A DNA stretch of 60,475 nt, the filler included, from Sphingomonadaceae bacterium (GTDB taxonomy: Bacteria; Chloroflexota; UBA6077), in NCBI GenBank assembly GCA_050261575.1. It is 3 parts of 3 records of this genome, joined end to end, with 100 filler letters (N's around TTAATTAATTAA, not from the genome) between each part and the next. Parts side by side here need not be neighbours in the genome. Positions count along the whole stretch, not along the records: positions 1 to 31,327 come from JBLNDL010000073.1; 2 more parts are not named here. The stretch is one strand, 5' to 3'. Position numbers and translations under genes: made by a program. The notes under the pieces are model-generated. The model saw only the letters and a list, made by a program, of their open reading frames with translations, was not told the DNA's origin and did no database searches. How positions within the stretch are numbered: position 1 is the first letter of the stretch; each line of letters starts with the position of its first letter. Of this stretch, positions 20,729-29,040 are shown piece by piece.

Positions 20729-21751
20729 TCACCGCAACGGTTCGCCCGATGACTGTCTCACCACCAACTGGGTGGGAAGCAAGATGGTTTGCTCGGTGGT
20801 ATCGCCCGCCAGCAACTGCAGCAGCAGCCGGGCAGCCGAGGCACCCATCTCGTAGGTCGGGAGCGCCACGGTCGTGAGGCTGGGCCTCACGTAGCGCCCC
20901 GCGGGGATGTCGTCGAACCCCACCACGGCCAGCTCCTCCGGAACCGCGGTGCCCAGATCGCGAGCAGCCGCCAGCACACCTAGGGCCATCTGATCGTTGG
21001 CGGCGAAGATGGCGGTCGGCCGCTGCCCGACTGCCTGGGACAGCAGGGAGAGGATGGCTTGGTAGCCGCTCTCGAACCCGAAGTCCCCCTCTCGGATCAG
21101 CGTCTCCCAGGGGCCGGCGCCCACCAACTCCAGCATCGCCTGCCGGTATCCCTTCATTCGGTCTCGGGCGCTCGTCAGCGCCGTCGGGCCTCCCAAGTAG
21201 GCGATCCGCCGGTGGCCCAGGGCGATCAGGTGGGAGGTGGCCTCGTAGGCGGCGCGGGTGTTGTCGATCTGGACGGAGGGGAGAGGCCACCGATGTCTAC
21301 CGATCAGGACGACCCGGTCGCCGATCTCATCGGGGGTGAGATGCTCCCCGTCGGTTTCGATGCCCCCGCCGGCAAAGATGATGCCGTCGGCCTGCTTCTC
21401 TCGCAGCACCTCCAGGTAGCTGCGGAGTTTCGCCAGGTTGCGGTCGGTGTTGCAGAAGATGACGGTGTAGCCGTGCTCGCTGGCGACATCCTCGACACCT
21501 CGGGACAGGAGCGGGTAGTAGGGGTTGGAGATGTCGGGGATGATCAGGCCGATGGTGGAGGTGGACTTTCCCAGGAGGCCGCGAGCCAGGGGGCTTGGCC
21601 TGAAATCCAGCGCCTCGATCGCCTCGATGACCCTCCGGCGGGTTTCGGGTCGCATGGGGTAGCCGGTGTCGTTGAGGACCCGGGAGACGGTGGTGATCGA
21701 GACGCCGGCCCTTGCGGCGACGTCCTGGATGGTCGCGGCCCTTCTCTCCAC
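20729..21751 (-). CDS. LacI-family transcriptional regulator
   Basis: TIQDVAARAGVSITTVSRVLN HTH plus sugar-binding domain (VVGFDD, PSLTTV). Confidence 0.96.
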   Translation of the reverse strand: MERRAATIQDVAARAGVSITTVSRVLNDTGYPMRPETRRRVIEAIEALDFRPSPLARGLLGKSTSTIGLIIPDISNPYYPLLSRGVEDVASEHGYTVIFCNTDRNLAKLRSYLEVLREKQADGIIFAGGGIETDGEHLTPDEIGDRVVLIGRHRWPLPSVQIDNTRAAYEATSHLIALGHRRIAYLGGPTALTSARDRMKGYRQAMLELVGAGPWETLIREGDFGFESGYQAILSLLSQAVGQRPTAIFAANDQMALGVLAAARDLGTAVPEELAVVGFDDIPAGRYVRPSLTTVALPTYEMGASAARLLLQLLAGDTTEQTILLPTQLVVRQSSGEPLR

Positions 21752-21766
21752 TCAGAAAGCCCTTTC

Positions 21767-21819
21767 AGAAAAGGTTTTCTACGGCCGGGATTGTAAGCCC
21801 ACGCGCGCGGCGTTGTCAA
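21767..21819 (-). promoter_or_regulatory. Promoter plus putative LacI-type operator
   Basis: Minus-strand TTGACA (21819-21814)-18 nt-TACAAT (21795-21790); palindrome AGAAAA-gg-TTTTCT at 21767-21780, just downstream of the predicted +1. Confidence 0.7.
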
Positions 21820-21904
21820 GGGGTTTTCCGAGAGGAATCCGCGGCATCTCCCTCCGAGGCCGTCTACCCCCATCTCGGATGGGGTCTCCCGGGCGCTCCT
21901 GGTC

Positions 21905-22282
21905 TCAGGCCGCCTTCAGCCTCGCCTCGGGCTGGCTCCCCTCCAGGGGGTAGCCCCTCGCCTGCCAGCCATGGATGCCACCCGTCAGTGCCCTCACGTT
22001 GTCGTAGCCCCGCCGCATCAACAGCAGCGCCGCACGGGCGCTGGTCTCCTCGTGGGGTCAAGCTCAATAGAGGATGATCGTGCGGTCGTGGGGAAGCTCT
22101 TCGGCACGCAGGGGGATCTGCATCAGTGGCATGCAGACGGCCCTCGGCACGTGGCTGCGGTTGAATGCCTCGGGGTTCCGCACGTCGACGAAGAGAGCCG
22201 TGCCCCGATCGAACTCGGCCTTCGCCTCCTCCAGATCGATCTTGGGCGCCTTGCCCAGGTCCAGTGGCTGCGGCTTCATCAT
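21905..22282 (-). CDS. Rhodanese-like protein with two in-frame UGA codons (putative UxU selenoprotein)
   Basis: FVDVRN..AFNRSHVPRA...IILY-TGA-A-TGA-PHEETSARAALLLMRRGYDNVRALTGGIHGWQARGYPLE; the rhodanese C-terminal half continues in frame to a stop at 21907-21905. Confidence 0.85.
22025..22043 (-). promoter_or_regulatory. Putative bacterial SECIS hairpin
   Basis: CAGCGCC-cgugc-GGCGCUG begins 14 nt after the second UGA; G at loop position 2. Confidence 0.6.
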
Positions 22283-22361
22283 TTCTCGCTCCTGACCTCT
22301 CTGAATCGGCCGGCCCCCAGCGCCCGCCGGCTCGAACAGATCGAGAGCGCAAAGGGCGTGC

Positions 22362-22739
22362 CTATCGTGGGGAGGTCGAGGGGGTGCTGCTCAGCAGCTC
22401 CGCCAGCCGAGCCGCGACATCCTGGCTCGTGGATCCTTCGGGCACGGGCAGCGCCTCGACGAGGTCCCTCGCGATCTCGACCACGGTGGCTCGGGTGGCC
22501 GCCTCTACCGGCAGCGTCACGTCCACCGACTCGCTCTCCACTATCACTTGCCGGTGATGGGCGTCCACGTGGTGGACCTGCAGGGTTACCACCTGCGCGT
22601 CCCTCTGAAACTCGGTCACGTCGGGCTCGGGGATGTGGAGGGTTTCTCGGAACCCCGCCTCCTTCAGCACCTGCGAGAGCTTCTCCACGAAGATCCCAGC
22701 TAGGTAGGTCTTCAGAGAAGCATCAAGTCTCTTTGCCAT
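22362..22739 (-). CDS. Hypothetical protein overlapping the antiporter 3' end
   Basis: 125-aa ORF, GAGGTG RBS, good codon usage. Confidence 0.75.
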   Translation of the reverse strand: MAKRLDASLKTYLAGIFVEKLSQVLKEAGFRETLHIPEPDVTEFQRDAQVVTLQVHHVDAHHRQVIVESESVDVTLPVEAATRATVVEIARDLVEALPVPEGSTSQDVAARLAELLSSTPSTSPR

Positions 22740-24036
22740 GCTCGCTATCCACCTCACTTTCGGCTTGGGCCTCGGACCAGGCTCCGCGCGTGCCTGGTCC
22801 ACCCTTCTTGAACATCGGCACCAGGAGGATCGGCGCCAGCACCGTGGTGATGAAGGTCATCATGACGGAGACCCCGAAAACGTCTGCCTGGATGACTCCT
22901 CGGCTGAGCCCGACTCCGGCGACGATCAGCGCAACTTCCCCTCGTGGCATCATCCCTACGCCGATCCTGCCTGCGCCGGTCAGGTTGAACCCCAGCCCCA
23001 GGGATGGGAGCCCACAGCCCAAGACCTTCCCGAGGATGGCCAGGATGCTGATCACCAATCCGAACAGCAGAACAGACCCCATCGCGCTGAAGTCCACCAG
23101 CATTCCCATCACCACGAAGAAGATGGGGACGAAGGCGTGGAAGATCGACTCCATCGGCTCACGCAGGGTGTCCGCGATGTCGGTCTTGGAGAGTGCGAGC
23201 CCGATGGTGTAGGCACCGATGATCATTGCGAGGCCGAACATCTCGGCTAGTGCTGCCGCCAGGAAGGCGATGGCCAGTGCTAGGGTTACCGGTGCCCCCG
23301 AGGAGCGGAACGAGGACAGGAAGTTCGAGATCCGCTGGGACAGCAGGATGCCGATTGCCATCAACCCCAGCCAGAAGCCCATGGCCTTTCCGGCCACCAG
23401 CGCCAGATTCCACAGGGAGACGTCCCCGCTTGCACCCAGGCTCACCACTATTGCCAGGACTATGATGCCCAGCACATCATCGATCACTGCCCCGGCCAGG
23501 ATGGTGACCCCTTCGGGTGTGTCCAGCTTCCCGATGTCTCCCAGCACCCTGGCTGTGATGCCCACGGAGGTGGCAGTCATTATGGCGCCCATGAATAGGG
23601 CGATCGGGTCCATCGGGTCCCTGGCCTGGCCGAAGGCCACGGTTGCCAGGTTCCCCAGGGCGAATGGCAGGATGACACCCCCCATCGCCACCACGAAGGC
23701 GGGCCCTCCGTATCGGAAAAACAGGTCGAAGTCGGTTTCGAGTCCGGCGTAGAAGAGCAGGATCACCGCGCCTATTTGGGCGACGGACCACAGCTCCGGC
23801 GACACGGGGACTACCGAGCCCGGTTCGGTACGGCCGAACAAAGTGCCGATCAGCGGCAGGCTCACTCCCCCCAGGGCGTAGGGTCCGATTGCCACGCCGG
23901 CCAGCAGCTCACCCAGCACGCTGGGTTGCTTCAGCCACCGCTCGAAGATCTCTCCTCCCAGCTTGGCGGCGATCAGGATCACCGACAACTGGAGCACCAG
24001 GTGGGCAACCAGCTCCGTGATGTTGGTCGATTCCAA
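22723..24036 (-). CDS. Cation:proton antiporter (CPA2 / Na_H_Exchanger)
   Basis: QPSVLGELLAGVAIGP, TATSVGITA, AVIDDVLG, MMPRGEVAL; start at TTG 24036 or ATG 24063. Confidence 0.94.
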   Translation of the reverse strand: MESTNITELVAHLVLQLSVILIAAKLGGEIFERWLKQPSVLGELLAGVAIGPYALGGVSLPLIGTLFGRTEPGSVVPVSPELWSVAQIGAVILLFYAGLETDFDLFFRYGGPAFVVAMGGVILPFALGNLATVAFGQARDPMDPIALFMGAIMTATSVGITARVLGDIGKLDTPEGVTILAGAVIDDVLGIIVLAIVVSLGASGDVSLWNLALVAGKAMGFWLGLMAIGILLSQRISNFLSSFRSSGAPVTLALAIAFLAAALAEMFGLAMIIGAYTIGLALSKTDIADTLREPMESIFHAFVPIFFVVMGMLVDFSAMGSVLLFGLVISILAILGKVLGCGLPSLGLGFNLTGAGRIGVGMMPRGEVALIVAGVGLSRGVIQADVFGVSVMMTFITTVLAPILLVPMFKKGGPGTRGAWSEAQAESEVDSEHGKET

Positions 24037-24186
24037 GTCTGTCTCCCCTCTTCCTTGATTCATCCCCGACTGGACCGCGTCTGGGGCTGGCCGATCGCAC
24101 GTGGAGCAGAATCCACTCCTGCCAGAGGCCGCGTCTGTTGGTAGGCGATGGTGCCTGCAACCTCGGGAGTGTGAGCCGACGGACAC

Positions 24187-24216
24187 AAAAAGGGAGACCG
24201 CCTGGCAGTCTCCCCC
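24187..24216 (-). terminator. Intrinsic terminator within the antiporter 5' leader
   Basis: Minus-strand GGGAGACUGC-cag-GCGGUCUCCC-UUUUU; the U-G pair supports this orientation. Confidence 0.8.
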
Positions 24217-24290
24217 TAGCCGCGCATGGTAACGGGTGCGGGCGCCCCGAGCCGGAATGCTGACGTGTTGTTGGCTACCTGTGTACCAGA

Positions 24291-24319
24291 ACTCTACCTG
24301 GGGCATAAGTGCTTGTCAA
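24291..24319 (-). promoter_or_regulatory. Sigma70-type promoter
   Basis: Minus-strand TTGACA-17 nt-TAGAGT. Confidence 0.7.
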
Positions 24320-28076: not shown

Positions 28077-28197
28077 GCGTCGTTTCCTCCGTGGCTCGGA
28101 TGGCCTCGCCACCGCTCCGCAAGAGGCGCGCCATGGGCGGCATGCAGAATGCTGAGGGATAGTGGACCCAGCCGAAGGGGAGGTCAGCGACGGGGAA

Positions 28198-29040
28198 ATG
28201 GAGATGGTGGAGCGGCTCTCTCTCATGGCGATCCTCGCCCATCCGGACGACGAGTCGTTCGGCAACGGCGGAACCTTGGCCAAATACGCCGAGGAAGGGG
28301 TGTTCACATCCCTGGTGATGGCGACCCGTGGCGAGGCAGGTGAGATCAGCGACCCGGCTTTGGCGGAACGGGACAACCTGGGGCAGGTGAGGGAGCAGGA
28401 GCTGAAGCTGGCCTGCTCCATCCTGGCGGTGGGCCACCTCCGCTTCCTCGACTACGTGGACGGCACGCTGCAATCCATCGACCAACGGGAATGCGTTGGC
28501 AAGATGGTGAGGTCCATCCGGGAGATGAGGCCGCAGGTGATCCTCACCTTCGGGCCGGATGGGGTGTACGGCCATCCGGATCACGTGGCGGTGAGCCAGA
28601 TGGCTACCGACGCGTTCAGACTCGCTGGAGACAACGCCGCCTACCCCGAGCAGTTTGGAGACGGCCTGAGGCCCTGGACCCCCCTGAAGCTCTACTACGT
28701 GGCCCCCCCCCGCGAACGATTCCGGAGGATGGGCGAACTCGTCGCCCAGATGCTACCGCATGCCACCTGGCAGGGCCCCGATTGGGCCAGCTTCGGGGTT
28801 CCCGAGGAGGGCATCACCACCTGCGTGGATGTGGGCAGGTACGTGGACACCAAGCTAGCGGCCATCGCCGCCCACCAGACCCAACTGCCGGCGGACCACC
28901 CGTTCGCCATGCTGCCTAGGGACCTACAGAGGGAGTTCTTCCGGGAGGAGTGCTACGTCCTGGCCGAGAGCAGGGTCTCACCGCCCGAGGGACGGGAGAC
29001 CGATCTCTTCGCCCGCATCGGCCAGGCCACGAGGGGCTAG
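28198..29040 (+). CDS. PIG-L/LmbE-family deacetylase (MshB/BshB-like)
   Basis: AHPDDE, TRGEAGE, GVYGHPDH, AHQTQ. Confidence 0.93.
   Translation: MEMVERLSLMAILAHPDDESFGNGGTLAKYAEEGVFTSLVMATRGEAGEISDPALAERDNLGQVREQELKLACSILAVGHLRFLDYVDGTLQSIDQRECVGKMVRSIREMRPQVILTFGPDGVYGHPDHVAVSQMATDAFRLAGDNAAYPEQFGDGLRPWTPLKLYYVAPPRERFRRMGELVAQMLPHATWQGPDWASFGVPEEGITTCVDVGRYVDTKLAAIAAHQTQLPADHPFAMLPRDLQREFFREECYVLAESRVSPPEGRETDLFARIGQATRG

Follow-up and report, generated by a model that had tools for sequence, protein, structure and literature searches.

On the minus strand of the 60,475-nt stretch of DNA analysed here (the window), we find a gene that, judging from its sequence and that of its relatives, very probably encodes a 125-aa single-domain rhodanese selenoprotein. 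It would be a U-x-U variant of the C-x-U family, with both in-frame TGA codons decoded as selenocysteine (Sec, U) by way of one hairpin. What is annotated as a 72-aa stub would then be a full, conserved, predicted double-selenocysteine enzyme. The features concerned are the following.

21905..22282, minus strand: predicted rhodanese selenoprotein gene, complete; 125 codons, closed by the stop TGA (21907-21905; translation, Pfam PF00581)
22282-22280, minus strand: start ATG (read from the sequence)
22289..22293, minus strand: Shine-Dalgarno-like AGGAG, with a 6-nt spacer to the ATG at 22282 (read from the sequence)
22064..22066, minus strand: first of the two in-frame UGAs (codon 73), where homologues carry Sec or Cys; it directly follows strand 68-72, and the catalytic position is two residues further on
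22058..22060, minus strand: second in-frame UGA, codon 75; predicted Sec common to all C-x-U and U-x-U members, aligned to the position at which ordinary rhodaneses have their catalytic Cys
22025..22043, minus strand: putative bacterial SECIS, CAGCGCC-CGUGC-GGCGCUG; 5-bp core 22041-22027, loop 22036-22032, G at loop position 2

Around the two TGAs the minus strand reads ATC CTC TAT TGA GCT TGA CCC CAC GAG GAG ACC AGC GCC CGT GCG GCG CTG, and translation of 22282..21905 gives a read-through product of 125 aa, ...TIILY-U-A-U-PHEETSARAALLLMRRGYDNVRALTGGIHGWQARGYPLE... The ordinary ORF list ends this frame at the first TGA (22064), after 72 aa. The positions that the initial annotation had given for the TGAs on this frame, 22066-22064 and 22060-22058, are exact to the base, and so is its 7-bp hairpin at 22043-22025, with a loop about 21 and 27 nt past the two UGAs. 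Its claim of an intact rhodanese C-terminus running to the stop at 21907-21905 holds as well, in that the read-through frame is unbroken and matches Pfam Rhodanese (PF00581) with an E-value of 4.7e-20 and 72.4 bits, against a gathering cut-off of 22.2, over profile positions 2-101 of 102. Downstream of the TGAs, residues G101, G102, W106 and P112 vary little or not at all across 41 aligned sequences. In public protein sets the gene and its close kin are present only as stubs of 72, 72 and 70 aa, each ending in ...Y just before the first TGA, and these sets systematically lose the family in this way, keeping nothing but fragments of 70-72 aa. When the whole protein library was searched with a profile, the best 150 matches were all multi-domain rhodanese repeats, and a search of genome contigs with the window protein gave four loci, none of them a Sec form.

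The genome that carries the window is metagenome-assembled (3.72 Mb in 103 contigs, scored 100% complete with 4.76% contamination) and holds tRNA-Sec (73.5 bits against a cut-off of 47), selA (595 bits) with selB adjoining, and selD, so that all four components, tRNA-Sec, SelA, SelB and SelD, score above their curated cut-offs; the search for Sec machinery called for by the initial annotation thus came out in favour of Sec at both Cys positions. The selD gene itself carries one in-frame TGA and reads SCAGUAGK. About 13 nt past that UGA stands a hairpin, GGUCC-GUU-GGACC (G000:C65:2949-3887, L016), another G-first loop in this genome. As for the window, its positions 1-31327 map to contig C73, and 31328-60475 are N or lie off C73.

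Given a contaminated draft of this kind, one could ask if the two TGAs are an artefact, produced by an assembly or sequencing error at TGC or TGT, or if TGA has been reassigned to a standard amino acid throughout the genome. Another study, however, yielded a contig (run X6, record 10) that covers 21995-22145, including both TGAs, with 0 differences, and orthologues as well as a paralogue carry the same TGAs. Genome-wide reassignment, already considered unlikely in the initial annotation, is excluded because TGA closes 1233 of the 2759 stop-to-stop frames of at least 350 codons and also the rhodanese gene itself, which makes it a normal stop here. Runs with full coverage of the locus are possibly the source of the assembly and were not taken as independent; the independent support for both TGAs comes from an assembled contig. 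Taken together, an artefact of either kind is scarcely credible. None of the RNA runs searched for the stretch was found to contain it.

A protein search that reads through stops, run over 60 relatives, returned many homologues with one or two internal TGAs. Among the loci read through, 13 have U-x-U (L023, L025-L027, L029, L030, L053, L055, L056, L059, L060, L063 and L073), 13 have C-x-U (L034 and L069 being from an unpublished genome) and L031 and L077 have C-x-C; the remaining loci comprise ordinary rhodaneses of the CxxGxR type and further Sec forms. Searching 401 genomes of the phylum with a DNA pattern made of both codons and the hairpin gave 64 matches, compared with 3 for a reversed control pattern. 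When these rows were read individually, 9 proved to be chance matches and 55 to be family members, namely 13 U-x-U (in 12 genomes) and 42 C-x-U, four of the C-x-U rows coming from unpublished genomes (G048, G191). All of the U-x-U rows fall in the window's own class (families f1, f8, f11, f13, f14 and f15); the C-x-U form occurs phylum-wide (401 genomes). A metagenome scan with a UxU-P pattern yielded at least 120 stretches, and the 80 loci examined comprised 41 true U-x-U rhodaneses and 39 chance matches.

The reading of the gene as a decaying pseudogene, that is, a former C-x-C rhodanese struck by two nonsense mutations, would explain why gene callers see only a 72-aa fragment. It is contradicted by the recurrence of the same two TGAs, in register, in the 13 loci of 12 genomes, where protein identity is 38-58%, the frames downstream are intact and the residues of the catalytic domain are conserved; the 41 metagenome loci and the presence of Sec machinery speak against it too, and in the alignment the downstream codons show no neutral evolution. 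We therefore agree with the earlier judgement that a double nonsense mutation is improbable, and regard a pseudogene as very unlikely. The reading of both TGAs as Sec draws further support from the annotated homologues of similar length found in a profile search (n = 77), of which 70 have C-x-C, 2 have C-x-W and 5 are of other types, with an acidic residue or Gln three positions on in 69 of the 70. The Y-C-x-C-P-x-E subfamily invoked in the initial annotation is accordingly real, both TGAs pair with Cys, and the homologue check that it proposed finds Cys or Sec at both positions, in these 70 proteins and in the 13 U-x-U and 13 C-x-U loci alike. The C-x-W in 2 of the 77 most likely represents a TGA that the gene caller translated as Trp. 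These two proteins, P0156 and P0173, read YCTWP at the motif, and the start of P0173 resembles the tail of a membrane transporter.

The genome contains a second U-x-U copy, 46% identical, which reads LYUTUPHEASSARAAL (L053, G000:C26:35009-35302, and L054, G000:C20:8-142). It shares the hairpin, in which one pair is a G-U wobble, and is split over two contig ends with overlapping sequence. In other relatives, Sec is found elsewhere in the loop, as in YCTGATUGSS and CIGKTUGES (L037, L057/L058, L064), CDDFQUDMS and CHDYEUDMS (L065, L070, L071) and YUNMRHRGSS (L062), which suggests that several Sec forms of the rhodanese domain coexist in the class.

Taken alone, the hairpin is no better than chance: its 7 bp give -12.1 kcal/mol (-7.9 for the core alone), but for the 71-nt stretch z is only -0.48, and 63 of 200 shuffles of this 65% G+C DNA are as stable. 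The signal comes from comparison with relatives. For this we used an ungapped alignment of 24 Sec-form loci (A1) that had been gathered by protein similarity and not by the hairpin. RNAalifold predicted a single element in it, whose 5-bp stem (GCGCC/GGCGC) closes a loop of 5 nt; the five core pairs are present in 21-23 of the 24 loci. Loop base 2 is an invariant G in all 24, followed by U or G. Two compensatory changes were seen, each at the cost of two amino acid substitutions: in L025 and L026, C-G has become U-A (Ala>Val, Ala>Thr); in L028, G-C has become A-U (Ala>Thr, Ala>Val). Such double changes occupy only 3 of the 144 cells of the alignment. Wherever a Sec-form locus has Ser at the codon opening the stem, that codon is AGY; in 12 of 17 ordinary rhodaneses it is TCN. 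Because the hairpin lies inside the conserved S-A-R-A-A codons, its apparent conservation is inflated by that of the protein, and covariation in the metagenome U-x-U loci was not counted since the pattern that selected them already demands most of the stem.

An all-Cys gene with the same residues would serve as a control for the hairpin, and we sought one with the motif Y-C-x-C-P-x-[ED]..S-A-R-[AV]-A; it occurs in 0 of the 401 genomes of the phylum, so that the genomes searched show this subfamily in selenoprotein form only. Among other all-Cys DNA considered for the same control, the C-x-C gene of a Ralstonia plasmid has other residues at these positions, and a Burkholderia match is without the motif. 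The C-x-C member L031 (G045:C73, locus positions 1705-1776; YCTCLHQSTGARAAQ) keeps a hairpin, GCGCC-CGGGC-GGCGC, without a UGA, which means that the stem can exist without one; it may be a relic of a recent change from Sec to Cys. Rfam gave no match.

The stem of the window hairpin starts 20 nt past the first UGA and 14 nt past the second, and its loop 27 and 21 nt past them. The criteria for a bacterial SECIS, as far as they are given in the legend to Fig. 2 of PMC13188914, are a loop of 3-9 nt, a stem of 4-16 bp, a minimum free energy of -7.5 kcal/mol or lower, a G in the first two loop positions and a distance of 16-37 nt from UGA to loop, and the hairpin, with its 5-nt loop, 7-bp stem and -12.1 kcal/mol, lies within all of them for both UGAs. 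It resembles the consensus element of that source in loop, stem, G followed by U or G, spacing and free energy, and differs in that one element stands behind two UGAs 6 nt apart. In a limited search, the portions of the literature that we consulted held no statement about one SECIS serving two nearby UGAs. The idea of a single SECIS, put forward in the initial annotation, fits these observations, the one conserved hairpin being the sole structure available and both UGAs lying within the 16-37 nt range.

We envision that SelB with Sec-tRNA(Sec) would bind the hairpin at 22043-22025 and deliver Sec at the UGA of codon 73, and that the same hairpin would then deliver Sec again two codons on, at the UGA of codon 75. 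From the geometry of the ribosome, a stem that begins 20 and 14 nt past the two UGAs should still be folded outside the ribosome when each is decoded, and one element could thus be used twice. The third TGA (21907-21905), which is without a hairpin, would terminate translation.

It could be argued that only the second UGA, codon 75, specifies Sec, and that the first is read by near-cognate Cys or Trp or mostly terminates, acting as a selenium-dependent attenuator. The spacing of the hairpin is evidently set for the second UGA, C-x-U being the widespread form (42 C-x-U rows to 13 U-x-U), the first UGA is 6 nt farther from the hairpin, and two SelB deliveries within two codons must presumably be inefficient. 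Yet the loop stands 27 nt past the first UGA, inside the range given in PMC13188914, and 70 of the 77 annotated homologues have at position 73 a Cys, the usual counterpart of Sec. Moreover, U-x-U has arisen or reverted at least five times, persists in several clades and is common in metagenomes, and such persistence is hard to explain if translation mostly ended at codon 73, ahead of the active site. Decoding of codon 75 alone is in our view unlikely, and insertion of Sec at both codons is the reading that we carry forward.

The exchange between Cys and Sec at position 73 can be followed on a maximum-likelihood tree that takes in 41 members of the family (13 U-x-U, 27 C-x-U and 1 C-x-C), with 8 ordinary rhodaneses as the outgroup. 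The loci L033, L034 and L069 (from unpublished genomes), L090, L092, L093 and L097 (with fewer than 85 aligned residues) and L077 were left out of it. The family is set apart at 100/99 support. U-x-U members have C-x-U members as sisters, even in a single genome, as L073 and L061 of G053 show, which indicates that residue 73 alternates between Cys and Sec and residue 75 remains Sec. The U-x-U label needs 5-6 changes on the tree, and the starred branches alone force 5. On this family tree, then, as reconstructed from the sequences, the residue at position 73 has changed from Cys to Sec, or from Sec to Cys, five times or more.

An AlphaFold2 model built from the 41 family sequences is confident, with a pLDDT of 93.2, and Foldseek places it with the single rhodanese domains of 3tp9, 6mxv and 3nhv (TM 0.75-0.79). 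In the model, codon 73 is the residue right after the central strand 68-72, and codon 75 lies between that strand and helix 76-90, directly before the helix. As expected of a rhodanese domain, the nucleophile position thus follows the central strand and opens the active-site loop. A HMMER alignment pairs codon 75, gaplessly, with the Cys of YCGSGFRS in domain 2 of 6mxv, which we take, from the rhodanese signature, to be the catalytic Cys. Model and alignment go part of the way to showing that Sec75 would occupy the position of the catalytic Cys at the N-terminus of the active-site helix, with Sec73 two residues upstream. Thiosulfate sulfurtransferases have a basic CRxGxR active-site loop; the corresponding loop of the window protein, U-P-H-E-E-T, is acidic.

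The likeliest chemistry would be that of a redox-active pair at residues 73/75. Sec75 would act as the nucleophile and either take up sulfane sulfur (or selenium) or become oxidised, and residue 73 would be its resolving partner, forming a Se-Se bridge in U-x-U, S-Se in C-x-U and S-S in C-x-C members. A diselenide between Sec73 and Sec75 is a plausible proposal. The fact that Cys and Sec are interchangeable at position 73 while 75 stays Sec suggests a helper role for residue 73 and an obligatory Sec at 75 in this lineage.

Ordinary single-domain rhodaneses such as GlpE and PspE (1gmx, 6mxv, 3tp9, 3nhv) share the fold (TM 0.75-0.79) and the catalytic position with the window protein. They have one Cys and a basic loop signature of the CRxGxR type, whereas the motif of the window protein is U-x-U and its loop, P-H-E-E-T, is acidic. 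The C-x-U rhodanese selenoprotein is already catalogued, as 'COG0607 form 2' in the part of PMC9312934 consulted and as 'form 3, NF041203, CxU, 1 Sec' in that of PMC13188914. The NCBI equivalog NF041203 (rhodanese_LYCAU) is alike in being a single rhodanese domain in which a Cys-type residue precedes the catalytic Sec by two positions; it differs from the window protein, in which the first motif position is predicted to be Sec too. NF041203 is the best NCBIfam match for 41 of the 41 aligned members, but the window protein scores about 86.2 bits, below the curated cut-off of 115, and would not be named by the NCBI model. Being closest to the model and yet below its cut-off, it belongs to a sister group or a divergent branch and is not an NF041203 member by NCBI's rule.

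A rhodanese-domain protein with two closely spaced Sec residues, UxxxxU, is listed in a table of PMC13188914 as TsoB. The model for that protein (NF045694, a rhodanese/DsbD fusion-like protein) matches the window protein weakly, at 27.9-28.1 bits against a cut-off of 805; it is a fusion model of 572 positions, with another motif and spacing. The U-x-U form of a rhodanese-related sulfurtransferase was itself reported in 2007, from the metagenome of Olavius algarvensis symbionts (Zhang and Gladyshev, PMC1976440). That protein, which we compare by its description and not its sequence, has the same arrangement and the same family name, but comes from marine deltaproteobacterial symbionts. With the form in print since then and with 41 true cases among the 80 metagenome loci, U-x-U is not as unusual as the initial annotation had supposed. 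The sections of PMC1976440 that we consulted contain nothing on the spread of U-x-U, the shared hairpin or repeated switching between Cys and Sec.

The genes around the rhodanese offer a lead as to its role. A Na+/H+ exchanger gene (22723-24306, minus strand) lies on the same strand, with the rhodanese gene 440 nt downstream of it, and a 146-aa ORF (22362-22802, minus strand) stands between them; Pfam has no match for this ORF, and 20 relatives have no homologue of it. A scan of 21600-22900 found no promoter-like site between the exchanger and rhodanese genes. All-Cys relatives of the domain are fused to Na+/H+ exchangers in 11 of 46 longer homologues, and also to DedA and to trypsin-like (S1-C) proteases; the C-x-C-P motif is present in 16 of the 16 fusions inspected, all of the exchanger, DedA or protease type. 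These fusions, together with the place of the window gene after an exchanger gene, raise the possibility that the rhodanese domain is a redox sensor for membrane transporters. The exchanger link is only a lead, since the exchangers of the fusions are not closely related to that of the window, and other U-x-U loci have other neighbours: no neighbourhood that would point to a pathway is conserved across the loci, which have peptidase M28, MerR/TipAS with Dus, a pyridine nucleotide-disulfide oxidoreductase, or an FtsH-like protein with Usp. In one of them (L027, G039:C25, locus 83-1860), the oxidoreductase gene (Pyr_redox_2 with a dimerisation domain) comes immediately after that of the U-x-U rhodanese and shares its strand. 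This enzyme is a possible redox partner, seen in this one locus only.

For selenium biology the advance is incremental, because the family and the U-x-U form are already in print. Set against the parts of the literature that we consulted, what is added is the spread of U-x-U, its repeated origin, a conserved minimal hairpin with covariation that is costly in amino acids, and the systematic truncation of the family in databases. We offer tentatively, as a proposal that could well prove wrong, the broader picture in which one minimal SECIS of 5-7 bp, written into the S-A-R-A-A codons, would be used twice, at 27 and 21 nt, to make a U-x-U enzyme that cycles through a diselenide, with position 73 as a toggle at which one class has swapped Cys for Sec, or Sec for Cys, at least five times. 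If this were true, the natural series of C-x-C, C-x-U and U-x-U proteins would provide matched proteins for the effect of each selenium and would measure the benefit of the second one. Two Sec residues two codons apart behind one hairpin would likewise be a ready-made test of how far SelB and the SECIS tolerate altered spacing and rapid reloading.

Two further observations concern neighbouring sequence and related loci. A strong match to a sigma-70-like promoter (TTGACA, 18 nt, TACAAT; 11/12) is found at 21819-21790 on the minus strand, between the rhodanese stop and the gene of a LacI-family regulator at 21751-20729. In another genome, two identical, inverted copies of a predicted rhodanese selenoprotein (L057 and L058; G046:C111:678-1013, minus strand, and 28167-28502, plus strand) lie near both ends of a 29-kb contig.
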